Source of the DNA: a virus
Lineage: Duplodnaviria; Heunggongvirae; Uroviricota; Caudoviricetes
Length of the DNA stretch: 37,665 bases
Strand: one strand, 5' to 3'
IMG/VR virus record: IMGVR_UViG_2675903324_000015
Span: 1-37,665 of that record
The position numbers and the translations under genes are program-made. The notes below the pieces were generated by a model. That model had not been told where the DNA came from, did no database searches, and worked only from the letters and a program-made list of their open reading frames with translations. Below, piece after piece: positions 1-35,045 of the stretch; position 1 is the stretch's first letter, and every line of letters begins with the position of its first letter.

Positions 1-1053
1 TTACGGGGTAATGCCAACCGCTGCCGCCACTTTGTCGCCACTTGGCAGCGTTGCCAGAGGATTGAAACGGAGCGCCGTTTCCAGATGATCCGGTGCCAGA
101 TGTGCGTAACGCATCGTCATTTTTATATCGTGGTGTCCGAGAATTTTTTGTAAGGCCAGAATGTTTCCACCCGACATCATGAAGTGCGCCGCAAACGTAT
201 GGCGCAGAACGTGTGTGAGTTGACCGCGAGGGAGCACGATAGACGTTTTTTCCATCACGGATAAAAATTGAAAATAGCAGTCTGTGAAGAAATTGAACCC
301 ATCAAGCGCCATGATCTCTTCGTAAAGCTCTTTACTGATAGGGATGCTTCTGTTTTTCTTCCCTTTCGTTCTGACAAAGGTAATTCGGTATTTAGTCACC
401 TGTGAACGGGTAAGATTTATTGCTTCTCGCCAGCGTGCGCCTGTGCTTAAGCAGATCTTGACTACCAGTGCCAGAATTGGGTCCTGACGTTTGCAATCAG
501 CCAGCAATTCAACAATCTGTTCATGGGTAAGCCATGCCATCTCTTTTTCTGCGATGGTGAATTTTCGCATGTTCTCCAGTGGGTTCGGATACGACCATTC
601 GCCCAGGCGGGATAGTTCGCTAAAAACACTACTTAGATAGCTTTGCTCCAGGTTAACGGTGACCGGGCTTGCTCCTTTCTTCCATTTTTCGCTGAAGTAG
701 ATCTCTCCTGTCAGGCGTTTATCTCTATAGTGGGCAAACATTTTAGAGGTGAGATCGGTTGCAATGGGATTTCCCAGAGCGTCAACCATCAACAGCAATT
801 TGTCATAGACATGCTGCCCAGCCGTCAGAGATTTACCATGTAGTTTGAACCATAGCTCAACCACGTCTTTCAGTGTTCGACGATCCACTGATTCACCCAG
901 CCAGGGTTTTGCTTCGGTTTCTTCCATCGTGTGACGCTCAAAAGCCAGTGCTTCGCCTTTGGTGGCGAATTGTTTACGCACACGACGCCCACTACGTCCG
1001 GCGGGGTAACATTCGCAAAGCCATTTTCCTGTGGTGAGTTTTCGTACTGCCAT
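1..1053 (-). CDS. int: Tyrosine integrase (P2/186-type), 350 aa
   Basis: Full ORF with stop at 1-3; C-terminal region with R...HxxR...Y-type catalytic residues (LRHTFAAH, MRYAHL); position beside the att core and the CI repressor. Confidence 0.9.
   Translation of the reverse strand: MAVRKLTTGKWLCECYPAGRSGRRVRKQFATKGEALAFERHTMEETEAKPWLGESVDRRTLKDVVELWFKLHGKSLTAGQHVYDKLLLMVDALGNPIATDLTSKMFAHYRDKRLTGEIYFSEKWKKGASPVTVNLEQSYLSSVFSELSRLGEWSYPNPLENMRKFTIAEKEMAWLTHEQIVELLADCKRQDPILALVVKICLSTGARWREAINLTRSQVTKYRITFVRTKGKKNRSIPISKELYEEIMALDGFNFFTDCYFQFLSVMEKTSIVLPRGQLTHVLRHTFAAHFMMSGGNILALQKILGHHDIKMTMRYAHLAPDHLETALRFNPLATLPSGDKVAAAVGITP
20..40. repeat. attL core: 21-bp direct repeat GCTGCCGCCACTTTGTCGCCA, inside the 3' end of int
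   Basis: 20/21 identical to 34812-34832 in the same orientation; flanks differ on both sides; the copies bracket all phage-like genes. Confidence 0.6.
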
Positions 1054-1131
1054 AAAAAATGCCCTCCAATAGAGAGCATTTTTACTGTATGTATAACCAG
1101 TGTCAATGTATGATGCTTGAGGTTACATACA

Positions 1132-1503
1132 TCATAAGTACCGATATGATTGCGGGGCCGTTATGTTATCACCTAATGAACTTAGATGAAGCGGTTGATC
1201 ATAGATTTTTAAATTGCCAATTTCTATAGCAAAGGCTTTTTCTTTGCTATGAAAATATGAGTCAAAAAATTGTTTGCTGATACCTGCGTATTGGCTTGTT
1301 TTTTCCCATACAATACTTGGCTTGTCTTCTATAACGTCTGCAATGTCAAATTCAGCAACAACTTTACCGACAGGCATTGTTGAATAAATAACCACAGATT
1401 TTACATCCGGGTTTTTGAAAAGACCTTTCCTGAATTCAAACTTCTTTGTCCCATTAAGGATCTTTTCAACAAATTCAGGTTTTATTGACAATAATACTTT
1501 CAT
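1132..1503 (-). CDS. Small ASCH/PUA-like fold protein (123 aa), function unknown
   Basis: AT-rich ORF; N-terminal pattern (LSIKPEFVEKILNGTKKFEFRK) resembles ASCH-domain proteins such as YqfB; 29-nt overlap with the upstream gene suggests an operon. Confidence 0.45.
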   Translation of the reverse strand: MKVLLSIKPEFVEKILNGTKKFEFRKGLFKNPDVKSVVIYSTMPVGKVVAEFDIADVIEDKPSIVWEKTSQYAGISKQFFDSYFHSKEKAFAIEIGNLKIYDQPLHLSSLGDNITAPQSYRYL

Positions 1504-2554
1504 CTACAGCACCAAGTTTAATTATATCGTCAAATTGCTTATCGGTTAATTTAACAACACCCCAACGGTTTTTAGGATTCAAACCAATTTCTTTAATTAG
1601 TTTAGCACGATTTATTCTTTTAGGTAAAGCTAGATTATATGTAAAACTAATAATGTAAGGGTATCTTCTTGTTTGATAAAATTTTTTCAATTCATTTTCA
1701 GAAAATACACTGTATCGTGCACAATATTGTATGAATTCATTTTCATTATGAAAAGAATCAATATATCTAATATCTTCAACTACACATAATGACGTTGCGA
1801 CAGAACGATAGTATGCTCTGTTCTCTTCGTCACTTGTTCTGTAAATAACTAAGATGTCATGTTTTTTTATTTTTTTTACATCATACATTCTACATATATA
1901 TATTTTTCTAATGCTATTAGCATGAGATACATCCGTGATTATATCTGGAGATTCAGTGACGAGTTTTGAATCAGGAAAAAGTTTTGTATGAAATTCAGGG
2001 TGTATTGACAATAGGTATTTATTCTCATTATTTTTATTATTTATATATGGGTAATCAGAAAGTATATCACCCGTGAGGTGATTTCTATTCATCTCTCTTA
2101 CTAAAACATTTTCTATACCATTTGCGGTTTTTTTTGTGCCATGAAGAATGAATCCATAAAGTTTGAATAGTTTTATTAGATATTCATGTTTTTCAAATAC
2201 AGTAACGTAAATATCATTAACTCTTTCTTTTAAAGCATGATCAAATATTTTTTTTAAAAAACGTTGCCCTCGTAATGTTTTTTTTGTATTGAACTTAAAG
2301 GTTCCAATTTTCAAATGTTTATGATTGATAATTGATGGGGTGACATCAGTTATTTTACCGAATTCAATTTTTAAATACATAAAACCATCAATGGTATTAT
2401 CGTCATTATAAAGCACATATGCTTTTTCTTCTGGATTAAGACTTTTTCTGTTGAACCATTCAATAAAACCGTGTTCATAGTCATTCTTTAACGAATCAAA
2501 AAATGTATCGTCAAAATTTACTTGACTGAATGGAATAAGTTTTAAATTTTCCAT
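1475..2554 (-). CDS. Hypothetical protein (359 aa) with N-terminal GNAT-like acetyltransferase fold and uncharacterised C-terminal domain
   Basis: Motif-A-like RGQRFLKKIFDHAL and motif-B-like HEYLIKLFKLYGFI; strongly AT-rich, Asn/Lys/Ile-rich composition unlike the phage core. Confidence 0.45.
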   Translation of the reverse strand: MENLKLIPFSQVNFDDTFFDSLKNDYEHGFIEWFNRKSLNPEEKAYVLYNDDNTIDGFMYLKIEFGKITDVTPSIINHKHLKIGTFKFNTKKTLRGQRFLKKIFDHALKERVNDIYVTVFEKHEYLIKLFKLYGFILHGTKKTANGIENVLVREMNRNHLTGDILSDYPYINNKNNENKYLLSIHPEFHTKLFPDSKLVTESPDIITDVSHANSIRKIYICRMYDVKKIKKHDILVIYRTSDEENRAYYRSVATSLCVVEDIRYIDSFHNENEFIQYCARYSVFSENELKKFYQTRRYPYIISFTYNLALPKRINRAKLIKEIGLNPKNRWGVVKLTDKQFDDIIKLGAVDESIIVNKT

Positions 2555-2581
2555 GTTGCCCCCTGTTTAATTATTGTGAGA

Positions 2582-3646
2582 TTATTTTCTATAGGTCCAA
2601 AGGTGAATAATTATATATATTACAATAGCTAAAATTGCCCCACCGATATAATATGTGCTTGTCGGTATAAATTTAAGAATAAAAGCAAAGGCAGCACCAT
2701 ATATCAAGTACGCAAAAATTTTACTGAATTTGGTTTTCGTGTTTTTAAACTTCACAACAACAGAGAAGTCATTTAGTGTTGTTTCATTATCATTAACAAT
2801 CTTCCAATGGTAAATCATAGGGTCGTGATCACCAAATGAAATACCTTTTTCGAAATATTTTGTCCATGTTTCAGACTCTAATATTCTACATCCTTTATAA
2901 CTTGAGCCAGATGCTGAACATTCATCAACAATATCTCTTATTATAAACAAATGTGTTTTTAAAGGTGTGCAAGCGGCGCTCGCCAGAGTTGTAGCAATTT
3001 CTGAAGGTAGGTTTCTTTGTTCATTGATCCTAAAATCAATAATATCAGAACGCTCAATATTACTTTTGAGAAAGAGATCTTTTGGATAAAATGTTTTTAC
3101 TAAAACACCTATATCTTCATTGTTGAGTTTAACTCGAAATCTTAAATAATGTGGAGCATCCTCTGACGATAGGCAATCTTTTAGCTTGAAAACAATGAAG
3201 GTGCCATTATGTATTTTAGTTACCTTAACCCTACGATCAAGTTCGCCACCACTAAAGGTCAGATTTGTATTAACAACTAAATCACCTTTATTCGCAAGTT
3301 CTAATTTTGAATGTCTGACGTCTACTGTTTTTGTATTAATAAGATATTCATTAAAAACAGCTGTTACGAGATCTCGGCTTGACTCGAGATTTTTACTAAG
3401 ATCAGAAAAAAAACAATTTTCCTTCTCAAATGGTAAAAATATGCATATTGCACCATGATTTGCAATGGTGTCGTCATCAGGTTTTTTAAACGTAATACCA
3501 AAATCTAAATAACAAAATTTATGAGCACTTATATTCCAAAAATTTATGTGTAACTCATTAATAAAATTATTGCGTTCAGGGTTATAGGTCGAACTCGAAT
3601 TGCTCCTATAATCCCTACATCCCCAGATAGCAAAACTTTTTGACAT
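2582..3646 (-). CDS. Hypothetical membrane-anchored protein (354 aa): large N-terminal soluble domain plus two C-terminal transmembrane helices
   Basis: C-terminal hydrophobic segments IFAYLIYGAAFAFILKF and YYIGGAILAIVIYIIIHLW; AT-rich; first gene of the three-gene cassette between cI and int. Confidence 0.5.
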   Translation of the reverse strand: MSKSFAIWGCRDYRSNSSSTYNPERNNFINELHINFWNISAHKFCYLDFGITFKKPDDDTIANHGAICIFLPFEKENCFFSDLSKNLESSRDLVTAVFNEYLINTKTVDVRHSKLELANKGDLVVNTNLTFSGGELDRRVKVTKIHNGTFIVFKLKDCLSSEDAPHYLRFRVKLNNEDIGVLVKTFYPKDLFLKSNIERSDIIDFRINEQRNLPSEIATTLASAACTPLKTHLFIIRDIVDECSASGSSYKGCRILESETWTKYFEKGISFGDHDPMIYHWKIVNDNETTLNDFSVVVKFKNTKTKFSKIFAYLIYGAAFAFILKFIPTSTYYIGGAILAIVIYIIIHLWTYRK

Positions 3647-3674
3647 AAATATTTCCTTATATCATAGTAAATTA

Positions 3675-4328
3675 TTATACATCTGATAATACTTTTCGAT
3701 AGCATCTTGCGATGGGTTTTATATCGTCAAGCATACATTCAAAAAATGTTTGACCACTGCTAACTTTTACTCTCCCAACTGGAATTCTAACCAGATCACG
3801 AGAACTTATTTTTCCTTCTATTTCAACAATCCATTTCCCATCAATAATTTCATCAAATTTCATGTCTACCAGATAATTATCTGATAACTCAGAAAATATT
3901 GCGGGGGTAATCATATCCACCGGGAGCAAATCTTTATCAAAAATGTAAGAGGAATCACCTTGTAGCTTGCCATCTACTATTTTGTAATGTGGCAATTTTA
4001 TACCTTCTTTCGTTGCTTTAAGACGAGGAGAACCAACACCAGACACTAACCATTCGAGAGACACTCCCGTTTCTAGAGCGCACTGAATTACCCAATCAGC
4101 TGGAAAAATATCACGCATATAGCGCGTTGCCATGGTGCTCTTAGAAACACCTAAATGATCACAGAGAGCCTGACGGGTACCGAACCCATATGCTTCAACT
4201 AAACGTTCTATAGCTTTCTTACCGCCGCTATTGAAATCCACAAGTCCTCCAAAGAAATCCAAAACTCGTTGACAGATTCCAAAAGCGATCTTAAAGTTGA
4301 ACCAGAAGTGTTCTTTTGGAGCCTTCAC
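3675..4328 (-). CDS. cI: CI-like immunity repressor (186-type), 217 aa
   Basis: HTH-like segment TRQALCDHLGVSKSTMATRYMR; divergent from apl/cII; same strand as int. Confidence 0.7.
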   Translation of the reverse strand: MKAPKEHFWFNFKIAFGICQRVLDFFGGLVDFNSGGKKAIERLVEAYGFGTRQALCDHLGVSKSTMATRYMRDIFPADWVIQCALETGVSLEWLVSGVGSPRLKATKEGIKLPHYKIVDGKLQGDSSYIFDKDLLPVDMITPAIFSELSDNYLVDMKFDEIIDGKWIVEIEGKISSRDLVRIPVGRVKVSSGQTFFECMLDDIKPIARCYRKVLSDV

Positions 4329-4386: not shown

Positions 4387-4590
4387 ATGACACCTAACAT
4401 TTCAATTACTCTGAATACACCACATGTCACAATCGAACGTTATAGCGAACTGACTGGCCTTGCTATTGATACGATTAACGACATGTTGGCTGATGGCCGA
4501 CTACCTCGTCATCGTCTTCGTAAAGACAAAAAACGTGAAAAGGTAATGATTAACCAGGCTGCTCTGACTGTTGATGCTTTGTCTGTTTAA
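4387..4590 (+). CDS. apl: Apl/Cox-like excisionase and switch regulator (67 aa)
   Basis: Small basic ORF, first gene of the rightward early operon, divergent from cI. Confidence 0.55.
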
Positions 4591-4645
4591 TAGACGTCTA
4601 TTTTCGCAATAAGACGCTGAGTTCGATTTTGCGATAAGTTCGGAG

Positions 4646-5164
4646 TTGAAAACCATGTTTGATTACCAAGTTTCCAAACATCCACATTTTGATGAAGCCT
4701 GTCGTGCATTTGCACTGCGCCACAATCTGGTGCAACTGGCAGAACGTGCAGGCATGAATGTGCAGATTCTGCGGAACAAGCTGAACCCAGCTCAGCCTCA
4801 TTTATTAACCGCACCAGAAATCTGGCTGCTTACCGATCTGACTGAAGATTCAACGCTGGTAGATGGTTTTCTGGCACAGATTCATTGTCTGCCATGTGTA
4901 CCGATTAATGAGGTGGCAAAAGAGAAACTGCCACATTACGTCATGAGTGCAACCGCAGAGATCGGGCGTGTTGCTGCAGGTGCGGTGTCTGGCGATGTAA
5001 AAACCTGTGCCGGTCGTCGTGATGCTATCAGCAGCATTAACTCTGTAACACGACTGATGGCGCTGGCGGCTGTTTCATTGCAGGCCCGTTTACAGGCTAA
5101 TCCTGCGATGGCGAGTGCAGTTGATACCGTGACTGGCCTCGGTGCTTCATTCGGTTTGCTGTGA
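4646..5164 (+). CDS. cII: CII-like lysogeny establishment activator (186 CII family), 172 aa
   Basis: Translation closely matches my recollection of phage 186 CII ([19 protein letters not shown]...AGMNVQ.LRNKLNP...[27 protein letters not shown]). Confidence 0.8.
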
Positions 5165-5171
5165 GGTGCTT

Positions 5172-5372
5172 ATGCTGACGAAAGAACCATCATTTGCATC
5201 GCTGCTGGTAAAACAAAGTCCGGCAATGCACTACGGTCACGGCTGGATCATGGGTGAGGATGGTAAACGCTGGCATCCGTGCCGTTCACAAGATGAATTG
5301 CTGGCAGAACTATCAACGAAAAAACGGGGGAACCAATGGCTATTGAAGGCGCTGCGGCGACTGTTCCATTAA
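5172..5372 (+). CDS. Hypothetical early protein (66 aa), at the position of 186 fil
   Basis: ORF with GAGGTG RBS before ATG at 5172; position in the early operon. Confidence 0.4.
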   Translation: MLTKEPSFASLLVKQSPAMHYGHGWIMGEDGKRWHPCRSQDELLAELSTKKRGNQWLLKALRRLFH

Positions 5373-5677
5373 GCCCCGGTGAACGCCTGAATGGACTTAA
5401 TCATATTGCGGAATTAAGAGCGAAAGTTTTTGGCCTGAATATTGAGTCAGAGCTTGAGCGGTTTATTAAAGATATGCGTGATCCACGGGATATCAATAAT
5501 GAACAAAATAAACGGGCACTGGCTGCCATATTCTTTATGGCAAAAATTCCAGCTGAACGTCATAGCATCAGCATTAATGAGCTGACCACTGACGAAAAGC
5601 GGGAGCTGATTAAAGCAATGAATCATTTTCGTGCAGTGGTGAGCTTATTTCCCAGACGGCTAACCATGCCGAATTAA
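5336..5677 (+). CDS. Hypothetical early protein (113 aa), at the position of 186 dhr
   Basis: ORF in the early operon; no recognisable motif. Confidence 0.4.
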   Translation: MAIEGAAATVPLSPGERLNGLNHIAELRAKVFGLNIESELERFIKDMRDPRDINNEQNKRALAAIFFMAKIPAERHSISINELTTDEKRELIKAMNHFRAVVSLFPRRLTMPN

Positions 5678-5744
5678 CCAACTAATGAAATTCATGGCGT
5701 AAACCCGCCAGGCATCCCTTTATCTAAATTCAGGAGAATTGATT

Positions 5745-5978
5745 ATGCGTAATATTGAAACCCTCACGACTAAAACCGGACCGGATGATGCAGGGCTTAA
5801 TATTTTACTGACAGAGGCTCGTCTGGAAGAACGCCGGGCAAGGGCTGAAGCAATGGCAGCTCGCCTTGATAGCCTGGCGTGTCATATCACATCCCGCCAG
5901 CTAAACCACGTCGAAGCGGCAGAACTGCTGCGTGTGACTGCTGAAGCAATCCAGAACGAAGCGCAGGAGATCCACTGA
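5745..5978 (+). CDS. Hypothetical early protein (77 aa)
   Basis: CAGGAG RBS 8 nt upstream of ATG at 5745; stop overlaps the next start. Confidence 0.45.
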   Translation: MRNIETLTTKTGPDDAGLNILLTEARLEERRARAEAMAARLDSLACHITSRQLNHVEAAELLRVTAEAIQNEAQEIH

Positions 5979-6205
5979 TGGCTGATGCAATGGATCTCGT
6001 ACAGCAGCGCGTTGAAGAAGAACGCCAGCGTCATATCCGTGCTGCCCGCGCCAAAACGCCGGGCGTATCCCGCGTGCTTTGCATTGAGTGTGAAGCACCA
6101 ATTCCGCCAGCACGACGTCGCGCCATTCCGGGTGTGCAGCTTTGCATTACCTGTCAGGAAATCGCAGAGCTGAAAGGCAAACATTACAACGGAGGTGCTG
6201 TATGA
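5978..6205 (+). CDS. TraR/DksA-family C4 zinc-finger protein (75 aa)
   Basis: CxxC...CxxC pattern (CIECEAPIP...CITCQE). Confidence 0.6.
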   Translation: MADAMDLVQQRVEEERQRHIRAARAKTPGVSRVLCIECEAPIPPARRRAIPGVQLCITCQEIAELKGKHYNGGAV

Positions 6206-7050
6206 GCACCATCCTGAAATGGGCGGGTAATAAAACCGCCATTATGCCAGAACTGAAAAAATACCTTCCTGCTGGCCCGCGACTGGTTGAACCTTTCGCG
6301 GGTTCTTGTGCTGTGATGATAGAGACGGATTACCCCAGCTATCTTGTTGCGGATATTAATCCTGATTTAATCAACTTCTATAAAAAGGTTGCTGCTGATT
6401 GCGAGGCGTTTATATCTCGTGCCAGAGCTTTATTTGAGGAAGCAAACAGGGAGGTGGCTTATTACAACATAAGGCAGGAGTTTAATTACTCCACTGAAAT
6501 TACTGATTTCATGAAAGCGGTATATTTCCTGTATCTCAATCGTCATGGTTACCGTGGGTTATGTCGCTATAACAAGAGCGGGCATTTCAACATTCCCTAC
6601 GGGAATTATAAAAATCCGTATTTCCCTGAAAAAGAAATTCGCAAATTTGCAGAAAAAGCCCAGCGAGCAACGTTTATCTGCGCCAGCTTTGATGAAACGC
6701 TGGCGATGTTGAAGGCGGGGGATGTGGTGTATTGCGATCCGCCTTATGACGGTACGTTTTCCGGCTATCACACTGATGGCTTCACTGAGGATGACCAGTA
6801 TCACCTGGCATCCGTTCTTGAACATCGATCATCTGAAGGTCATCCGGTCATTGTTTCTAACAGTGACACATCCCTGATTCGTTCGCTGTATCGCAATTTC
6901 ACTCACCACTACATCAAGGCAAAACGCAGCATTGGCGTGTCAGCTGGCGAGAGTAAATCTGCAACAGAAATCATTGCCACCAAATCAGCTGGGGGGTTTG
7001 GTGTCGATTTTGCCAGCGGCTCTGACCGTACCGTTGAGGTACGCGCATGA
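6202..7050 (+). CDS. DNA N6-adenine methyltransferase (Dam-like), 282 aa
   Basis: Motif I FAGSCAV and motif IV DPPY ([10 protein letters not shown]); GGAGG RBS before ATG at 6202. Confidence 0.85.
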
Positions 7051-8057
7051 ATGCTATCGATCCGCGTTGCTTTGCCTCAGGCACCATTAACGTCATCAAT
7101 ACTTCTGGTGGCAAAGATAGTCTCGCTCAATGGCTAAGAGCCATTGAAAACGATGTTCCGCATATTTCTGTATTTGCCGATACGGGTCATGAACATCCAC
7201 AGACAATAGAATATCTGGATTATCTGGAATCAAAGCTGGGCAAGATTATTCGCGTCAAAGCGGATTTCACACGCCAGATAGAAGGGAAACGTAAATTCAT
7301 TGCGGAAAAGTGGCCCATTTCTCTCGTTGAGGAATGTGGTATGTCGACAGATGAGGCTGAGGAACGTATTTACCGGGCACTGGAAATCCTTAAACCAACC
7401 GGCGTTCCGTTTCTTGATTTGTGCATGTGGAAAGGTCGCTTCCCTTCAACAAAAGCTCGTTTCTGCACTTTTGAACTGAAACATGAACCAATACGTACAC
7501 AGGTAATCGATCCAGCTCTGGATGAATACGATGAGGTAATCAGCTGGCAAGGAGTCCGGGGGCAGGAATCACCGGAACGTGCATTGTTGCCTGAGTGGGA
7601 GGACGATGCAGACAATACTCTGGGGCTGCATGTTTATCGTCCGATCCTTAATTGGCTGCATGAGGATGTGTTTGCTATTGCCAAACGTCATGGCATTAAG
7701 CCTAACCCCCTTTATATGCAGGGATGCAGTCGTGTCGGTTGTATGCCATGCATTCATGCTCGCAAGTCAGAACTTGGAGAGATTTTCCAACGCTGGCCAG
7801 AAGAAATCCGCCGAGTGGCTGAGTGGGAAAGACTGGTTGCGGAATGTTCAAGACGTGGCAATTCAACGTTCTTTCCATCCACGCATGATCCGCGCCGTGC
7901 TGAAAAACGGATCGAAGTCATAACTGTTGATGCTTATGGCATTGAAACTTATCGGGACTGGGCCTTAACGACTCGGGGCGGTATGCAGTTTGACCTGCTG
8001 GCAGGCATGAATGATAAAGCGGTGTGCAGCAGTGTATATGCAGGAGTCTGTGAGTGA
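7047..8057 (+). CDS. PAPS-reductase / ATP-pyrophosphatase-like protein (336 aa)
   Basis: N-terminal PP-loop motif SGGKDS; Cys-rich C-terminal region ([10 protein letters not shown]); start overlaps the Dam stop. Confidence 0.65.
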
Positions 8058-10495
8058 CAGAGATCAGCACAGGCCGTCTTGCCGCTCCATTTGTCAGTGT
8101 AACTTCCGGTAGCATTGAGAATTCTGCCGGGGGTTATTCGTGGAATTTACCTAAGAAAGCCATTAACCCTTATCTGGACCCGGCGGAAGTTGCGCCGGTT
8201 TCTGCGCTTTCAAACCTGATCACTCTGTACGCTACCGATAACGAGCAGGAACAACTGCGCCGCGAGGCACTGAGTGATCAGGTCTGGGAGCGTTATTTCT
8301 TTAATGAATCCCGTGATCCTGTCCAGCGCGAAATGGAGCAGGATAAGCTCATTAGCCGGGCAAAGTTGGCGCATGAGCAGCAGCGTTTTAACCCGGACAT
8401 GGTCATTCTGGCAGACGTCAGCGCCCAGCCCTCCCATATCAGCAAGCCGCTGATGCAACGTATTGAATACTTCAGCAGCCTGGGCAGGCCAAAGGCTTAT
8501 TCCCGCTATTTACGTGAGACGATTAAGCCATGTCTGGAACGACTGGAGCATGTACGCGACAGTCAGCTATCCACTTCTTTTCGCTTTATGGCAAGCCATG
8601 AAGGGCTGGACGGCCTGCTAATCCTGCCTGAAATGAGTCAGGATCAGGTGAAACGCCTGTCCACCCTGGTAGCTGCGCATATGAGCATGTGCCTTGATGC
8701 AGCTTGTGGCGATTTGTATGCCACCGATGATGTTAAGCCAGAAGAAATCCGCAAGACATGGGAAAAGGTGGCAGCAGAAACCCTGCGTCTGGATGTCATC
8801 CCGCCTGCGTTTGAGCAACTCCGTAGGAAAAGAAAGCGCCGTAAACCAGTGCCCTATGAACTCATTCCGGGTTCGCTGGCGCGTATGCTGTGCGCCGACT
8901 GGTGGTATCGGAAATTGTGGAAGATGCGTTGCGAATGGCGGGAAGAGCAGTTGCGTGCTGTCTGCCTGGTCAGCAAAAAAGCATCTCCCTATGTCAGCTA
9001 TGAAGCCGTGATGCATAAACGTGAGCAGCGCCGTAAGTCGCTGGAGTTTTTCCGTTCTCATGAACTGGTGAACGAAGACGGCGACACGCTGGATATGGAA
9101 GATGTGGTAAACGCCAGTAGTAGCAACCCGGCGCATCGCCGCAATGAGATGATGGCATGTGTTAAAGGTCTGGAGCTTATCGCGGAAATGCGCGGTGACT
9201 GCGCCGTTTTCTACACCATCACCTGTCCGTCACGTTTCCATTCCACGCTAAATAACGGCAGGCCCAACCCGACCTGGACAAATGCGACGGTAAGACAAAG
9301 CAGTGATTATCTGGTCGGCATGTTTGCTGCATTTCGTAAGGCGATGCACAAAGCCGGATTGCGCTGGTATGGCGTGCGGGTGGCTGAGCCGCATCATGAC
9401 GGTACAGTTCACTGGCACCTGTTGTGTTTTATGCGCAAAAAAGATCGCCGCGCCATTACTGCTTTGTTGCGTAAGTTTGCCATTCGTGAAGACCGCGAGG
9501 AGCTGGGTAATAACACAGGACCACGCTTTAAGTCTGAGTTGATTAACCCGCGCAAAGGTACGCCAACAAGCTACATCGCGAAATACATCAGTAAGAACAT
9601 TGACGGGCGTGGTCTGGCTGGCGAGATCAGCAAGGAAACGGGTAAATCCCTGCGTGATAACGCTGAATACGTTAATGCCTGGGCGTCTCTGCATCGTGTT
9701 CAGCAATTCCGCTTCTTTGGTATTCCAGGGCGTCAGGCTTACCGTGAACTGCGGTTGTTGGCTGGTCAGGCGGCAAGGCAGCAGGGTGACAAAAAAGCAG
9801 GTGCGCCGGTACTGGATAACCCGCGCCTTGATGCAATCCTGGCTGCTGCTGATGCTGGCTGTTTTGCCACCTACATTATGAGGCAGGGCGGCGTGCTGGT
9901 TCCTCGCAAATATCACTTGATCAGAACCGCTTATGAAATCAATGAAGAGCCGACCGCCTATGGCGATCACGGTATTCGTATTTATGGCATCTGGTCACCC
10001 ATTGCAGAGGGCAAGATCTGCACTCATGCAGTGAAGTGGAAAATGGTTCGTAAAGCCGTTGACGTTCAGGAGGCGGCAGCCGACCAGGGCGCTTGCGCCC
10101 CTTGGACTCGTGGCAATAACTGTCCCCTTGCTGAAAATTTGAACCAACAAGGGAAAGACAAATCAGCTGATGGGGATACTAGGACGGACATTACCCGCAT
10201 GGATGACAAGGAGTTGCACGATTACCTGCACAGTATGAGCAAAAAAGAGCGCCGGGAACTGGCTGCAAGGTTACGCCTGGTGAAACCGAAACGGCGTAAA
10301 GACTACAAACAGCGAATTACAGACCATCAGCGACAGCAGCTCGTCTATGAACTGAAGTCCAGAGGATTTAATGGCAGCGAGAAAGAGGTCGATTTACTCC
10401 TTCGCGGCGGCAGTATTCCGTCAGGAGCAGGCCTGCGTATCTTCTATCGGAACCAGCGTTTGCAGGAAGATGATAAGTGGCGAAACCTGTATTAA
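8054..10495 (+). CDS. A: Replication initiation protein A (rolling-circle nicking endonuclease, P2 gpA family), 813 aa
   Basis: HUH-type motif VHWHLLCF and nearby YIAKYISK tyrosine motif; size and position; GTG start. Confidence 0.85.
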
Positions 10496-11240: not shown

Positions 11241-11666
11241 CTACTTAATTGAGTCCAGTAACAAGTTACAGTTACTCTCATTGTAGAGAGAACGAGCAAT
11301 TAGTGTTACCTGCTTTCCATTCATTCCCGGCTTATCCCATAACACAGCTTCTTGCGACGCCACAAATTCAGCATAATCAATTATGCGTTGTTCGTGATCT
11401 GGTTCCTCATAGCCAAAGTATGAGAGCGCATCGTTGTAAGCGTGGTAAGCTGCTTTCTGTAATATCTTGATATCGGCTGTAGGTACTTGCTCCGTGTAGC
11501 TAGGATCTAATTGTGTGCTACTGCCATAGAATGCACATGAAAGGTAAGATATTGATTTCTGTTGAGCTTTAGTTCCTTTCTCATAGTTTTTAGCTGTTAC
11601 CGCCTGAACTGGGACGCTAACAAAGCTTGCAACCAGAATTAAAATTAATACGTAAAAGCTTTTCAT
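11241..11666 (-). CDS. Hypothetical secreted protein (141 aa) with N-terminal signal peptide
   Basis: MKSFYVLILILVASFVSVPVQAVTA signal-peptide-like N-terminus; AT-rich; reverse strand. Confidence 0.55.
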   Translation of the reverse strand: MKSFYVLILILVASFVSVPVQAVTAKNYEKGTKAQQKSISYLSCAFYGSSTQLDPSYTEQVPTADIKILQKAAYHAYNDALSYFGYEEPDHEQRIIDYAEFVASQEAVLWDKPGMNGKQVTLIARSLYNESNCNLLLDSIK

Positions 11667-11939
11667 TTTGACCTCAGCCGAAACGTTAGAGAGACTATCG
11701 AAATTTGTAAAACCCGTGGCGATTCAGTTTGAGATCCTCCCCCTTACATGATTTTTAATCAAATATATGCTTTTGTAAGCATACCTGTTAACCGAATTAT
11801 TCATTTTTAGAGATCTTCCGACATACTGATTATGCCCGCTGAGGAGTTCACCTTGCGTAAAGTCCGATTCGCTTTACTCGTCTGTGCATGTCTATGCTGC
11901 ATGAGATTGCATGATCGTTTGAGGATCGTTTTTGCTAAG

Positions 11940-11963
11940 GCCCGCCAGAACTGGCGGGCTTTT
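11940..11963 (+). terminator. Intrinsic-terminator-like hairpin (GCCCGCC-AGAACT-GGCGGGC-TTTT)
   Basis: 7-bp GC stem, 6-nt loop, T4 run; lies within the putative cos region. Confidence 0.4.
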
Positions 11964-12008
11964 GCGTAGATCATGCACCTGCATGAAAACCACTACATAA
12001 AGCGGGCA

Positions 12009-12027
12009 GGCGTGGCGGGGATACGAG
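12009..12027. other. Putative cos (cohesive-end) site
   Basis: GGCGTGGCGGGGA matches the first 13 nt of the 186/P2-type 19-nt cohesive end as I recall it (GGCG[T/A]GGCGGGGAAAGCA[T/C]). Confidence 0.45.
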
Positions 12028-12157
12028 CGCGCGCTAACTCTTGGCTTTGTTTCATAATCAAAAATGTGATCATTGAGATTATTCTTAAATTTATGTTTGT
12101 CTATGAAATATCATTTCGCTTAACATTGTTTGAGTTAGGACTACATGAGAATAAAGA

Positions 12158-12733
12158 ATGCTTTTACCCGTAAGTGTTACATCGTGTGGCTTGTATCACC
12201 CCTACTGGCATTTGGGAGAGCGCAACCCTCATAGCGATGAACTATCAAGGCAGATGATGGATTTTAAGGATGAAAATAATCGTAATCATCAAAGGGCTAT
12301 TAACCGTTTTTCTCGATTAGCTATAGATAAGGTTGGGCGGTTAGTAATCAGAGGTGGCGGTGGGCGTTTTGTTGAGTCTCCTTTTTCGATAGCAGTCGTC
12401 CCGTCTCACACTGAAGGCAGAATTTCACCGGCTTTGATTGAGGTCGCCGAGCGAATCGTAAATGTTCACCGTCGGGGCATTGTTGATTGCTGTTTGGAAA
12501 GAACACGCACTGTTCCTAGCGCACATCGTGAAGGAGGCGATCGCTCAATTACTGGTCACATGTCTAGTATCAGAGTTAGGGGTGGTAACCTCATGGGGCG
12601 AAATGTGTTACTACTAGATGATGTTAAAACAACAGGCGGTAGTTTGTCTGCGTGTTTTTATTTACTGGAGTCTGCAGGAGCTGGAGTTATAATGCCATTA
12701 GCTCTGCTAGAAACTGCAAACTATGAGGAGTAG
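12158..12733 (+). CDS. Phosphoribosyltransferase (PRTase, ComF-like) domain protein; true start may be internal
   Basis: Canonical PRPP-binding motif VLLLDDVKTTGGSL near the C-terminus. Confidence 0.75.
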   Translation: MLLPVSVTSCGLYHPYWHLGERNPHSDELSRQMMDFKDENNRNHQRAINRFSRLAIDKVGRLVIRGGGGRFVESPFSIAVVPSHTEGRISPALIEVAERIVNVHRRGIVDCCLERTRTVPSAHREGGDRSITGHMSSIRVRGGNLMGRNVLLLDDVKTTGGSLSACFYLLESAGAGVIMPLALLETANYEE

Positions 12734-13697
12734 CAAAGTGCACTCAGAAGAATTAAAAAATACACTTGGATTAGCTATTCAAATCGGGAAGCTAGCATCT
12801 GATCAAAGTGTATTGAAATTCTTTGAGCTTATTGATTTTGATGTTATTCGTGATATACGCGACTTAACTGAGATGGTTAATAGCCACGGGTTTCTAAAAG
12901 ATAAAATATCTGAGACTGATTTTCTAATAGCGAACGCTGAATTGGAGAACCACCATGTTAATGGTGTGGAGCTAATACCATATGGGTCTGAATTCTATCC
13001 TCTTAGTTTAGCGTTTACTCCTAATCCACCATCAATTCTCTACATAAAAGGGGATAAAAGTATACTAAAAGAATTGCCGGGTGTCGCAATTGTAGGATCC
13101 CGTGATACTTCCCCTGCAGGGGAAGAAATAACGAGGCGAATCACTAATCAGATAGTGTCTGCTGGGTATATTGTTGTAAGTGGGTTAGCAATAGGCACTG
13201 ATGCGAATGCTCATAAGGCAACGTTACAAGCAAAAGGAAAAACCATTGCTGTCTTGGCGCATGGTCTTGAGGAGGCTAAGCCGAAGCAAAACAGTCGACT
13301 TGCTCAAGAGATTCTGGATAAAGGTGGTGCATGGATTTCTGAGTATCCTATGGGTCGACCGGCCCAGAAACAATCATTTGTACAAAGAAATCGGATACAA
13401 GTTGGATTATCTGCAGGTTCAATTTTAATCGAGGCTGCGTTAAATAGCGGAACGATAACTCAAGCTGAGTTTGCAAATAAGGCGAAAAGACCAGTGTTTG
13501 CGGTTGTACCTCACCTACCTAATAATCCGCTTAATCTTAATTGTGAGGGAACAGTTGATTTAGTTAAGAGCAACATGGCTAGAGCGTTAAAAACAAAACG
13601 GGATTATGATGATGTGATTATGATCATAAATGAGTCTCGGGAGTATTTGTTAGAGCTAAAATGGCCAGGGAAACAGAGTACATTAGACTTGATTTAA
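12723..13697 (+). CDS. DprA/Smf-like (SLOG Rossmann-fold) protein, 324 aa; alternative GTG start at 12738
   Basis: DprA-type signature GVAIVGSRDTSP...GLAIGTDANAH...KTIAVLAHGLE...ISEYPMG...QRNRIQVGLS...PVFAV; overlaps the PRTase gene. Confidence 0.75.
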   Translation: MRSSKVHSEELKNTLGLAIQIGKLASDQSVLKFFELIDFDVIRDIRDLTEMVNSHGFLKDKISETDFLIANAELENHHVNGVELIPYGSEFYPLSLAFTPNPPSILYIKGDKSILKELPGVAIVGSRDTSPAGEEITRRITNQIVSAGYIVVSGLAIGTDANAHKATLQAKGKTIAVLAHGLEEAKPKQNSRLAQEILDKGGAWISEYPMGRPAQKQSFVQRNRIQVGLSAGSILIEAALNSGTITQAEFANKAKRPVFAVVPHLPNNPLNLNCEGTVDLVKSNMARALKTKRDYDDVIMIINESREYLLELKWPGKQSTLDLI

Positions 13698-13721: not shown

Positions 13722-14750
13722 CTAAATTTGATATCTCTCGAATTTTATAATTTCTTCACCGCTCCAATGATTAAATTCTTTCATTCTTTTTTGTAATGGT
13801 AATAATTCATTTTTCACAAAGACCTTACTAGCTTTTTCTACATCCCCAAATCCCCCAACATTATTAGGCATTATCCCCATCATCTGTGGCGGAACGCGAT
13901 GTGCTGCCATCATGTCATCCCGGCTCACGTTCTTGATATTTAGAAACTCATCCTTCGCCGCGACTTCTGACAACGGGATAATCTGAAGCCCGTCCTTTTT
14001 GCCGTTCGGCGAGTACATAAACAGGTTACGGAAGTTGCCTGGTCCTTTGGCGCTTTTCATTGCGTTGCGGAGGTTGTTTACATCCTCCTGGTTCTGCGCG
14101 GCATCGGTCATGTACATGATGAAGCCTGCATGACTACCGTTAATGTAATACTTGCGGCGGAACAGCGTGGCGGATTCGTTGAGCAGGGCTGACGGAATGG
14201 CAGAAAGATAACCGGGCAGGCCGTAGATCTCCTGGTTGATGTCCGGTTCCATCAGATGAAAGATGCTGCCTTTCGTGAACTGATACGGCTGGGTTGTCAT
14301 ACCGTATTGCACAAACCAGTAGGTATCCAGGTCTAATCCGCGTCGGGTGTATTTTGCCAGCGCAGGTTCAAGGGCGATCACTTCACCGAAGCGGTTCGTG
14401 CGTTTCTCCAGATAGGCGTTGCCAAATACCAGATAGTCCTGCACAAAACGCGAAAAAGCTTGCTGGCTGAGCAGAGGATGAGGGATATAGGTACTGGTCA
14501 GAATGTTGCACTTTACTGCAATCGGGGAACTGTGATGCACGGCAGCGCGGAAGGTGCGCGCCAGTCCGTCAAAGCTGACGGGCGGCTCATACCAACGGTC
14601 CATCTGTACGCATTCCACATAGTCCAGTAATTCTCGGCGGTCCAGAACAGGAACGGGATCGCCGAAGCTGAATGCTTCGGCTGAAGTTTGGTTTTTATGC
14701 TGGATCTGATTCGTCGCCGCAGTGCGGTTTTTCTTACTCTTTCCCATCAA
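13722..14750 (-). CDS. Q: Portal protein (P2 gpQ family), 342 aa
   Basis: Size, position, 4-nt overlap with the terminase gene. Confidence 0.8.
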   Translation of the reverse strand: MMGKSKKNRTAATNQIQHKNQTSAEAFSFGDPVPVLDRRELLDYVECVQMDRWYEPPVSFDGLARTFRAAVHHSSPIAVKCNILTSTYIPHPLLSQQAFSRFVQDYLVFGNAYLEKRTNRFGEVIALEPALAKYTRRGLDLDTYWFVQYGMTTQPYQFTKGSIFHLMEPDINQEIYGLPGYLSAIPSALLNESATLFRRKYYINGSHAGFIMYMTDAAQNQEDVNNLRNAMKSAKGPGNFRNLFMYSPNGKKDGLQIIPLSEVAAKDEFLNIKNVSRDDMMAAHRVPPQMMGIMPNNVGGFGDVEKASKVFVKNELLPLQKRMKEFNHWSGEEIIKFERYQI

Positions 14751-22126: not shown

Positions 22127-22879
22127 TTAAATGCTGAGGTTGTTTTTACACAATAGAATGAAGTCGCAGTACATCTTATGGATTTTAGTTCCCCATTTGT
22201 TAGCTTTTTTTATGGTTTCAGATGTCTCAGGGCTTAAATCCCACGAGGCTCTCTCTCTGTCGGTAAGTATAGACATGAATTCGCTACAGTTTAAATATCC
22301 AGAGTGACAGGATAAAAAATAGTTAAATTTAGTTATTTCTTTGAGTAATTCAATTGATTTGTTTTCTATGTCATCATCATGAAAATGATGATTGGCCTTT
22401 CCCCATTCATAGCAATACGTACTCATGTCTTTAAGGTTGGAGTTATGAAAAGTATTACCAAAGTCATGGGTTTTCAGAAATTCTATTGATTTCGAATCAG
22501 GTGGTAATAATTTTATAAACTCATTATATAACTTAACGTCAGAGTCTCTTTTTCTCTCCGATGCTTCTCTGTTTTCTTTGTCTTTAATAATTTCAAAGTA
22601 CCACTCAGGTGCTTTGCTTAATAAGTTGTAGATTAATCCAAAAGCAATTAAAGTGATGGCCACTACTGTGCTTGGGTTGCCGTTTTCTATGTTTATTATA
22701 TCAATATCTGTATTGAATTTTTTATTATAAATATCAATTAAAAAATTAAGAGCCATTAGATAGTATGGAATTGGTAGTGCGATTATACCTATTCCAGTTA
22801 TAACTAAGAGCCAAGTTATTTTATTACTAAACTCAGGAAATATCACATTGATTATTTTTTTTGCAATCTGTTTTTTCAT
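22127..22879 (-). CDS. Hypothetical membrane protein (250 aa, two N-terminal TM helices plus soluble domain); reverse-strand moron between S and V
   Basis: Very AT-rich; TM segments ITWLLVITGIGIIALPIPYYLMALNFLI and VVAITLIAFGLIYNLL; opposite strand to all flanking late genes. Confidence 0.6.
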   Translation of the reverse strand: MKKQIAKKIINVIFPEFSNKITWLLVITGIGIIALPIPYYLMALNFLIDIYNKKFNTDIDIINIENGNPSTVVAITLIAFGLIYNLLSKAPEWYFEIIKDKENREASERKRDSDVKLYNEFIKLLPPDSKSIEFLKTHDFGNTFHNSNLKDMSTYCYEWGKANHHFHDDDIENKSIELLKEITKFNYFLSCHSGYLNCSEFMSILTDRERASWDLSPETSETIKKANKWGTKIHKMYCDFILLCKNNLSI

Positions 22880-34832: not shown

Positions 34833-34890
34833 TCGTTAAAAAACAGTGCTTCTAACCTCATGATTTTAAATAGAATAAATTTTAGGCAAC

Positions 34891-34933
34891 AAAAAACCCA
34901 TCAACCTTGAACCGAAATGGCGGGGTTGATGGG
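34891..34933 (-). terminator. Intrinsic terminator hairpin on the minus strand, about 110 bp downstream of ybjL
   Basis: 10-bp inverted repeat CCCATCAACC/GGTTGATGGG followed on the minus strand by TTTTTT. Confidence 0.45.
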
Positions 34934-35045
34934 CTCCACAAAATGGGGACATCAAAGAAAAGCAGTGGCACTAATTAAGACTGATGCCCTGCGGAAAAGT
35001 TCTGCGGTTGTGCAAAAAAATTTCATTTTCAGGGCAACTTCAGTT

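Follow-up and report, generated by a model that had tools for sequence, protein, structure and literature searches.

Identification of a ShosTA-type gene pair

Two adjacent genes in the window (the whole stretch of viral DNA that was analysed, 37,665 nucleotides) probably form a minimal ShosTA-type (type IV) toxin-antitoxin module acting by abortive infection, carried as accessory cargo of a P2/186-like prophage. They belong to the ShosTA family by profile and fold, and they show conserved residues for catalysis and for DNA and RecA contact, a conserved synteny of toxin followed by antitoxin and a place in cargo hotspots of mobile elements. By analogy with the long-form E. coli system, toxicity, neutralisation, a trigger and protection against phages would be expected of the window pair. 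The open reading frame list of the whole window gave the cassette as two plus-strand frames, 12158-12733 (191 aa) and 12723-13697 (324 aa). The features of the locus are as follows.

8054-10495, plus strand: replication endonuclease gene gpA, left boundary of the cargo region (annotation in near-identical records)
11934-11965, plus strand: terminator-like inverted repeat, a GC-rich hairpin with a run of T after it, at the close of the upstream DinI/cargo region
12009-12027, plus strand: cos-like site GGCGTGGCGGGGATACGAG, a positional homologue of the P2 cohesive end
12158-12733, plus strand: ShosT-like toxin gene, a stand-alone 191-aa phosphoribosyltransferase (PRTase) without the HAD/pyrophosphatase domain (open reading frame, PADLOC, AF2 fold)
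12617-12637, plus strand: PRPP-binding loop DDVKTTG (D154, D155 ... G160), residues 154-160, read from the sequence
12723-13697, plus strand: ShosA-like antitoxin gene of the DprA family, likely true start GTG 12738 (319 aa)
12726-12731, plus strand: GAGGAG, Shine-Dalgarno sequence for the antitoxin gene, inside the toxin's conserved C-terminal Y-E-E codons
13701-13715, no strand assigned: putative short hairpin GCCTCT-TTT-AGAGGC in the gap where the antitoxin and portal genes converge, read from the sequence
13722-14750, minus strand: gpQ-like portal gene bounding the cargo region on the right (annotated 'phage portal protein' in E. coli records that are near-identical)

A DprA and PRTase pair from a P2 hotspot was validated against T7 and lambda (Rousset et al., 2022, PMC9122126); the antiviral report mentioned in an earlier note on this DNA therefore exists. 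According to Millman et al. (2022), that pair is ShosTA. ShosTA systems confer protection from T7, from lambda and from SECphi phages (Rousset et al., 2022, PMC9122126; Millman et al., 2022; Pu et al., 2025, PMC11961720). The earlier note regarded the mechanism as unresolved, a view overtaken in large part by the type IV toxin-antitoxin mechanism since described for ShosTA (Pu et al., 2025, PMC11961720; Yang et al., 2026, PMC12961424). The double mutation of D331/D332 in E. coli ShosT abolished toxicity, and mutation of the PPase domain lowered it only marginally (PMC11961720). Toxicity, neutralisation by an antitoxin that does not bind the toxin, and protection are known for the long-form E. 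coli ShosTA only. Phages that escape long-form ShosTA have mutations in SSB, in primase-helicase or in genes for host shut-off. The RefSeq proteins of a near-identical copy of our cassette, WP_001316964 and WP_001324531, were catalogued as P2-hotspot cargo in supplementary tables (PMC9122126).

Like ShosTA of E. coli APEC O1/KTE181 (structures 8ZVA-8ZVD, 9VZO), the window pair is a two-gene module of a PRTase and a DprA-like protein in the gpA-portal hotspot of a P2-like prophage. Both systems match the broad PADLOC ShosT and ShosA profiles and keep the acidic pair of the PRPP loop, the two essential ssDNA-binding arginines and the RecA-contacting K200. Furthermore, both antitoxins have the same three-part architecture, in which the winged-helix domain at the C-terminus of E. 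coli-type DprA is missing. However, APEC O1 ShosT has 424 aa, with an N-terminal HAD/pyrophosphatase domain and a C-terminal PRTase, whereas the 191-aa window toxin is a PRTase alone. In APEC O1 the antitoxin gene comes first (DprA 4414-5397, PRTase 5399-6673 at its locus, L003) and the genes lie on the gpA side of cos; in the window the toxin gene comes first, and the cassette lies on the portal side of cos and is transcribed towards the portal gene. The window antitoxin is 36% identical to APEC O1 ShosA and does not keep R206, a RecA contact, or L181/F182 of the dimer interface. The pair thus shows what marks the broad ShosTA family (both profiles, an adjacent, co-oriented and conserved gene pair, the acidic pair and equivalents of R139, R234 and K200) but not the two-domain 424-aa toxin and antitoxin-first order of the characterised E. 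coli subtype. The missing HAD/pyrophosphatase domain seems dispensable, because the effect of the PPase mutation was marginal and because HAD is a separate third gene at one locus (L021). The pair had been proposed as a likely anti-phage system. The matches of both proteins to defence models agree with this, but the tested system is a different subtype, and protection by the window pair would follow by analogy with it.

Location in the prophage

The cassette is hosted by a P2/186-like prophage and sits in the variable cargo region enclosed by gpA and the portal gene, in line with the prophage cargo position given in the earlier note. Within that region it was placed between cos and the portal gene, adjoining the packaging site and at the very end of the packaged chromosome. 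In blastn, window positions 11980-12038 aligned with the P2 cosR/cosL junction (45/59 identity, E 5e-9), and 14 of the 19 cos bases matched P2 inside that alignment. A stretch of about 140 nt (11900-12040) that holds the terminator-like hairpin is common to many P2-like prophages, and this conserved left flank was matched in 47 phage records. The upstream hairpin was the sole find of the repeat search. The candidate hairpin behind the antitoxin gene was not recovered by the terminator scan; the promoter/terminator scan gave no more sites than shuffled sequences and none 5' of the toxin gene.

The cassette has a low GC content, about 42% vs about 55% in the structural genes, and the same slot holds a TIR-domain gene in phage 500465-1. 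It resembles P2 old/tin and other P2/P4 hotspot defence cargo in occupying a cos-adjacent variable slot, in being dispensable for the phage and in its low GC. However, its proteins and mechanism are unrelated to those of old/tin, which lie on the other side of cos. The Rfam scan of the window had RybB (34888-34966) as its sole match and gave no RNA partner for the cassette, which speaks against both a retron and a type III antitoxin RNA. No PADLOC retron model matched at E up to 0.01, and there was no RT open reading frame between gpA and the portal gene.

The phosphoribosyltransferase gene, a putative toxin gene

The PADLOC search matched both proteins to ShosTA models. For the toxin, residues 44-186 of 191 aligned with positions 62-211 of 237 of the ShosT profile PDLC03962 (E 3.6e-14), which also matches the validated APEC O1 ShosT (E 1.8e-53). 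The APEC O1-type subtype model PDLC03012 gave no match to the toxin in PADLOC, the match to the generic model PF00156 was weak (E 0.0012; 18.6 bits, under the cut-off of 26.3), and neither the Pfam nor the NCBIfam scan showed a HAD domain in it. The AF2 model of the toxin (pLDDT 90.4) had ShosT as its best PDB folds (8zvc, E 2.8e-5, rmsd 2.9 Å, and 8zvd), followed by ComF (7p0h), while housekeeping PRTases ranked below; the margin over ComF and PyrR was modest. H. pylori ComF being the third-best structural match, the likeness to ComF/DprA noted earlier is real at the level of the fold. Sequence comparison with E. coli ShosT recovered the PRPP loop only (16/44 identities in BLASTP; 83% probability over 43 columns in hhalign), and a phmmer search of the PDB up to E 1 did not recover any ShosT chain. 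It is thus the broad profile, together with fold and synteny, that places the toxin in the family.

The canonical PRPP-binding motif pointed out in the earlier note was borne out by DDVKTTG at residues 154-160 together with the PDLC03962 match. D154 and D155 align with D331 and D332 of E. coli ShosT; among 22 toxin homologues, D155, T158 and G160 are invariant and D154 nearly so. The short toxins have further invariant family motifs, SCGxYHPY (in a hairpin), VPSH and GGDRS, plus H134. A start at M33/M34, taken from a shorter PHROG profile, was discarded in view of the conservation of residues 1-33 among the homologues, which favours the ATG at 12158.

PsyrTA/RqlHI is another toxin-antitoxin defence system. 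The window antitoxin matches the PsyrA model (E 1e-30), and the toxin PsyrT has a related PRTase domain at its C-terminal end, preceded by a RecQ-like helicase. However, the 191-aa toxin matches no part N-terminal to that PRTase: its match to the PsyrT model (E 4.9e-6) covers only the C-terminal ~110 of 689 positions.

The gene junction

The earlier note described the genes as overlapping. This holds for the longest open reading frames, which overlap by 11 nt, but not if the GTG at 12738 is used. That codon follows GAGGAG, yields a 319-aa antitoxin and starts 4 nt past the toxin stop; in P2-like and P4-like relatives the downstream gene likewise begins 4 nt past the stop. Over all relatives read (the window and eight relatives were compared), the junction ranged from a 4-nt overlap to a 4-nt gap. 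Whether overlapping or 4 nt apart, the two genes are tightly coupled, and from their sequence translational coupling appears likely.

The DprA-like gene, a putative antitoxin gene

The antitoxin begins with a helical domain, continues with a Rossmann/SLOG domain and closes with a C-terminal helix and disordered tail. Its matches to PF02481 (E 1.4e-60) and to the SLOG model PF18306 (8.2e-5, under its cut-off) confirm the DprA-type Rossmann domain reported for the second gene, and it matched the PADLOC ShosA profiles PDLC03961 (E 2.8e-70) and PDLC02997 (E 2.8e-33). Foldseek with the AF2 model (pLDDT 91.8) gave full-length matches to DprA (3maj, 1.3e-20) and ShosA (8zva, 6.5e-20), so that the antitoxin is equally close to housekeeping DprA and to ShosA. 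R127 and R222 correspond to the ssDNA-binding R139 and R234 of ShosA, and K188 to K200, a RecA contact. All three are invariant in an alignment that includes APEC O1 ShosA, and the two arginines are also invariant among 26 antitoxin homologues.

Distribution of the cassette

The cassette was found in 33 of the 1282 complete E. coli genomes that share the flanking sequence, and is thus missing from about 97% of related prophages; among 50,697 phage records, one carries it. With this distribution it does not count among the core functions of the phage. In each of the close relatives that were read, a DprA-like gene directly followed the toxin gene. The pair occurred in P2-like prophages of Pectobacterium and of a metagenome, in Salmonella phage SopEPhi, in Mu-like prophages (Shewanella algae and a metagenome), in a P4-like satellite of Hafnia, and also in Atlantibacter and Pseudidiomarina, and it travels between unrelated mobile elements as a unit. 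The related-locus search of species-representative genomes gave four loci, two of which, marginal PRPP-loop matches, were left out. A cyanobacterial relative of 294 aa (P0040) was placed outside the cassette family, as it has no DprA neighbour. The profile search, with ~1,270 hits at E<=1e-10, suggests that stand-alone toxins of ~185 aa are the commonest form of the ShosT family.

Proposed mechanism and alternative explanations

In the mechanism proposed for the window pair, both genes would be co-transcribed, toxin first, and translationally coupled. The 191-aa PRTase would bind PRPP through the DDVKTTG loop, and the phosphoribosyl group would be consumed or moved onto an acceptor. This activity may disturb purine nucleotide metabolism and so cause replication stress and DNA damage. 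The DprA-like protein would not bind the toxin; it would bind ssDNA and RecA and promote recombinational repair, a role modelled on the biochemistry of DprA (ssDNA binding and RecA loading), and the lysogen would survive. Two triggers can be envisaged: an infecting phage may stop host transcription so that a labile antitoxin decays, or ssDNA replication intermediates of the phage may flood the cell and pull the antitoxin off RecA. In either case, the damage would be left unrepaired and the cell would die before the phage matures.

The original shosTA paper is reportedly that of Kimelman et al. 2012, and by the account of later papers the family entered the literature as a toxin-antitoxin pair. 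The cassette might accordingly be a plain addiction or stabilisation module that keeps the prophage or its cos-proximal cargo without meaningful protection against other phages, and nothing in the sequence tells addiction from defence. We consider this unlikely. The protection by related ShosTA systems against T7, lambda and SECphi speaks against it, as do the movement of the cassette as a unit between unrelated elements and the match of its slots with those of validated defence genes (P2 old/tin, APEC O1 ShosTA and the P4-like satellite hotspot).

Another explanation is that the pair serves the phage in DNA processing, as ComF and DprA do in natural transformation, for example by placing RecA on phage ssDNA or by shielding the cos ends. 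The folds agree with those of ComFC-DprA: a ComF-type PRTase on one side and, on the other, a DprA Rossmann/SLOG domain preceded by a helical N-terminal domain. H. pylori ComF ranks high among the structures that match the PRTase, canonical DprA (3maj) is the best match of the antitoxin, and the antitoxin scored 186.4 bits against TIGR00732, just under the cut-off of 191.15. A gene for a DinI-like RecA modulator also lies near the cassette. However, that gene is annotated in related prophages with different cargo, for which reason a functional tie was set aside. The toxin reached only 25.5 bits against the comF model TIGR00201 (cut-off 233.55) and the antitoxin 168.6 against E. coli-type DprA (PRK10736, cut-off 495), and the ShosT and ShosA profiles outscored the competence profiles. 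Moreover, unlike ComFC-DprA, the two genes form an adjacent, coupled, accessory unit of patchy distribution on mobile elements, missing from nearly all related prophages and phage records. A DNA-processing role is hence quite improbable. Least credible of all is a nucleotide-salvage or counter-defence pair whose PRTase reprogrammes host nucleotide pools for the resident phage: the toxin weakly resembles adenine, orotate and hypoxanthine PRTases, but every housekeeping PRTase model fell far below its cut-off, the motifs SCGxYHPY, VPSH and GGDRS are not those of salvage enzymes, and the obligate DprA-like partner would be left unexplained.

Implications for the ShosTA family

The window pair is a further member of the established ShosTA defence family, in a short-toxin version, and nothing categorically new. 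Taken together, the observations allow a tentative reading that we hold to be rather doubtful: a PRTase of ~190 aa may be the ancestral and commonest ShosT, to which HAD/pyrophosphatase would be an optional addition; with motifs and toxin-first coupling of its own, the short form may use another acceptor or trigger; and the cos-portal interval may be a second cargo slot of P2-like phages, distinct from the old/tin side.

So far, ShosTA has been studied experimentally in one atypical long-toxin subtype, and the short PRTase, the suggested majority form, occurs in P2-like, Mu-like and P4-like elements alike. In RefSeq the toxin gene is unannotated in most carriers and the antitoxin is labelled 'DNA-processing protein DprA', so annotation-based surveys will miss or misread the system. 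The 191-aa toxin without a pyrophosphatase domain offers a clean way to ask whether the PRTase alone suffices and, as a simpler and minimal enzyme, could be a better handle for finding the phosphoribosyl acceptor.

Results

The ShosTA-Like Gene Pair

The window contains an entire P2/186-like prophage, and both genes of its cassette were found as the earlier note had described them, the first with the PRPP-loop motif DDVKTTG (residues 154-160 of the product) and the second with a DprA-type domain (PF02481, E 1.4e-60).

12158-12733, + strand, toxin ORF, 191 aa
12723-13697, + strand, antitoxin ORF, longest form, 324 aa
12726-12731, GAGGAG, a good Shine-Dalgarno sequence for the GTG at 12738

When searched against PADLOC models, the toxin, a phosphoribosyltransferase (PRTase), matched ShosT PDLC03962 (E 3.6e-14) and the antitoxin matched ShosA PDLC03961 (E 2.8e-70), with weaker matches to PsyrT and PsyrA, respectively; the broad ShosT profile also matches the validated toxin of E. 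coli APEC O1 (1.8e-53). The generic Pfam PRTase model gave a weak match to the toxin (E 0.0012, under the gathering score), and no HAD domain was found in it. Its AlphaFold model was confident (pLDDT 90.4, pTM 0.87), and the top PDB folds were three ShosT structures (8zvc, E 2.8e-5, rmsd 2.9 A; 8zvd; 8zvb) and ComF of H. pylori (7p0h), ahead of PyrR and the salvage PRTases by a modest margin. Residues 1-33 (12158-12256), predicted as short beta-hairpins, keep SCGxYHPY...G..N across the family and recall the zinc-finger N-terminus of ComF without being identical to it. The family's PHROG profile starts only at residue 34, and thus the gene is probably truncated in some phage annotations.

The second ORF is clearly a DprA-family protein. 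TIGR00732 narrowly missed its cut-off (186.4 bits; cut-off 191.15), and the E. coli-type DprA model scored 168.6 bits (cut-off 495) over profile positions 71-271 only, indicating that the antitoxin lacks the C-terminal domain of E. coli-type DprA. In the confident model (pLDDT 91.8), residues 8-79 form a helical N-terminal domain and 82-289 a Rossmann domain, followed by a C-terminal helix (292-310) and a disordered tail; DprA 3maj and ShosA 8zva matched this model full length. R127, R222 and K188, the counterparts of ShosA R139, R234 and K200, do not vary in the alignment containing APEC O1 ShosA; R127 and R222 are invariant across 26 homologues too. ShosA R206, R261 and L181/F182 were not conserved in the window antitoxin.

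The genes had been described as overlapping. This holds, by 11 nt, when the longest ORF is chosen, and the overlap is a product of that choice; with the GTG at 12738, 4 nt past the toxin stop, a 4-nt gap separates them. The conserved C-terminal codons of the toxin (N-Y-E-E) contain ATGAGGAG. Gene-caller starts in P2-like and P4-like relatives have the identical 4-nt spacing, and over all relatives read the two genes overlapped by at most 4 nt or lay at most 4 nt apart. We therefore favour a 319-aa antitoxin translationally coupled to the toxin, because of the placement of the Shine-Dalgarno sequence and the spacing in relatives. The 'MRS' N-terminus in common with the Salmonella phage SopEPhi was uninformative on the start, since the toxin's reading frame constrains those bases.

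Homologues and Synteny

When 1.84 billion representative proteins were searched exhaustively with the toxin profile, 204 proteins scored E<=1e-30 and 1268 reached E<=1e-10. Among the top 150, roughly four in five were stand-alone proteins of <=210 aa and the remainder N-terminal fusions (up to 708 aa); all ten sampled homologues of varied length matched the broad ShosT profile. Short toxins thus seem to be the usual architecture in this family. A toxin gene directly followed by a DprA-like gene was found in P2-like prophages of Pectobacterium (L010, L011), right after gpA in another P2-like prophage, in Mu-like prophages (Shewanella algae and a metagenomic locus), in a P4-like satellite of Hafnia, and in Atlantibacter and Pseudidiomarina. 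In SopEPhi (AY319521, 3489-5037), orf14/orf15, both annotated only 'unknown', are the toxin and antitoxin homologues (49.5% and 60% identity) and occupy the same position before the portal gene. A three-gene variant (GCA_001027745.1, LECU01000003.1, 4001-7362) consists of genes for a PRTase fusion (507 aa), a DprA-like protein (437 aa) and a HAD hydrolase of its own (174 aa), in this order. The HAD module, part of the toxin in E. coli ShosT, is therefore exchangeable: fused, separately encoded or absent. The three-gene cassette adjoins a resolvase and a GmrSD-like gene.

The pair was also compared directly with the APEC O1 locus. APEC O1 ShosA shares 36% identity with the window antitoxin over 198 residues (E 6e-35), whereas ShosT has the PRPP loop alone in common with the window toxin (16/44 identities; hhalign 43 columns). 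In phmmer searches of the PDB with the window toxin, no ShosT chain was retrieved at E up to 1, and the APEC O1-type PADLOC model PDLC03012 (973 bits against ShosT itself) did not match it. Furthermore, the APEC O1 gene order is the reverse of the window's.

Prophage Setting and Other Cargo

1-1053, - strand, integrase
1132-2554, - strand, two overlapping PDC-M11-matching genes (PADLOC candidate defence system), between integrase and CI repressor
3675-4328, CI repressor
4646-5164, CII/CP76 gene
7047-8057, + strand, PAPS-reductase-domain protein (PF01507, E 1.2e-33), just upstream of gpA
8054-10495, gpA
11241-11666, - strand, 141-aa protein with hydrophobic N-terminus (phrog_7437), between a DinI-like gene and cos
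12009-12027, cos-like site homologous to the P2 cohesive-end region, upstream of the cassette
from 13722, - strand, portal and terminase genes
up to about 34.5 kb, structural and tail genes
22127-22879, - strand, 250-aa ORF between tail and baseplate genes, where GC dips sharply to about 32%
beyond the structural and tail genes, Asp-Al_Ex (ybjL-like) and YbjM domain genes
34888-34966, - strand, host sRNA gene RybB (105 bits)

RybB lies directly past the last phage genes, so the prophage appears to be integrated beside rybB. GC content is about 55% in the structural genes but only about 42% over 10.5-13.5 kb. Over positions 11980-12038, 45/59 bases are identical to the P2 cosR/cosL junction (E 5e-9), and the cos-like site there places the cassette in the cos-portal interval, which in P2 is only 167 nt. 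P2 old/tin and APEC O1 ShosTA lie on the gpA side of cos, whereas the window cassette is on the portal side, as is a TIR-domain gene in phage 500465-1. The slot left of cos is variable: the window and strain AMSHJX01 have the 141-aa protein there, other carriers a KAP-type P-loop NTPase of ~630 aa. The RefSeq version of the 141-aa protein is shorter (WP_001059831).

The PDC-M11 pair (a 123-aa ASCH-domain protein matching PDC-M11B, E 2e-49, and a 359-aa protein matching PDC-M11A, E 1e-133) sits in a low-GC island (28-32%) at about 1000-4300, which looks like a second cargo slot. The next ORF (2582-3646, 354 aa) had no match in PADLOC, Pfam or PHROGs, nor had the 250-aa ORF, whose place we take to be that of the non-essential orf30 of P2. 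The PAPS-reductase-domain protein gave weaker PADLOC matches to the SspD, BrxP and DndC models; the Pectobacterium prophage L010 has the same gene in the same place.

Discussion

Our results revealed that the pair belongs to the ShosTA family, as indicated by the broad profile, folds, antitoxin residues, homologue search and synteny. The DprA-PRTase antiviral report mentioned in the earlier note was traced to Rousset et al. (2022, PMC9122126), who found that a 'DprA + phosphoribosyltransferase' pair located in the P2 hotspot of E. coli APEC O1 confers protection against T7 and lambda; Millman et al. (2022) identified this system as the ShosTA toxin-antitoxin pair. The anti-phage reading is therefore supported by family profile, fold, residues, synteny and literature. 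ShosT interferes with purine metabolism, inducing filamentation and genome duplications; D331A/D332A abolished its toxicity, and the pyrophosphatase mutant R56A lowered it marginally (Pu et al., 2025, PMC11961720). PRPP is contacted by K280, R285, D331/D332 and H240 (Yang et al., 2026, PMC12961424). ShosA is DprA-like, binds ssDNA and promotes recombination, does not bind ShosT, and owes its instability to the C-terminus; T7 Gp0.7 triggers the system via transcription shut-off (Pu et al., 2025). ShosA is a dimer in which the ssDNA-binding R139 and R234 are essential, R261E has no effect, and K200 and R206 touch RecA directly, in competition with ssDNA (Yang et al., 2026).

Homology, conserved residues, synteny and context are demonstrated for the window pair itself, which most probably constitutes a minimal type IV toxin-antitoxin abortive-infection module. 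By analogy with the long-form system, the PRTase would be toxic, the antitoxin would neutralize it indirectly through ssDNA/RecA-dependent repair, and antitoxin lability and triggers may be similar. The absence of a pyrophosphatase domain is compatible with a functional toxin, since this domain adds little to ShosT toxicity (PMC11961720).

A toxin-antitoxin module serving addiction only is unlikely; the pair shares its family with the protective APEC O1 system. It is less probable still that the genes form a ComF/DprA-like DNA-processing pair serving the phage; a ComF fold among the top matches speaks for it, and the score of the NCBIfam comF model, far under its cut-off, speaks against it. 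Nucleotide salvage or counter-defence is very improbable, the NCBIfam housekeeping PRTase models all scoring far under their cut-offs.

That these are conserved essential phage genes is ruled out by the variable slot left of cos and by their distribution: the cassette occurs in 33 of the 1282 E. coli genomes sharing its flanks (5426 complete genomes searched), and among 50,697 phage records only SopEPhi encodes a toxin homologue. In three near-identical E. coli copies, the toxin gene differed from the window's by 7 nucleotide changes in total, 1 of them amino-acid-changing; this small count is consistent with purifying selection.

Intact toxin ORFs lack a RefSeq gene in NZ_CP116176 (4259-4834) and NZ_CP030939 (3759-4334), and 14 of the 15 best-matching genomes have only 'DNA-processing protein DprA' annotated at the cassette, so this ShosTA-type system is under-annotated. 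WP_001316964 and WP_001324531, the RefSeq accessions on near-identical copies, are listed as 'Pribosyltran + DNA_processg_A' in the supplementary P2-hotspot cargo of Rousset et al. (2022, PMC9122126), as a catalogue entry, unlike the assayed APEC O1 pair. The family is thus a known one, and the cassette itself had already been catalogued.
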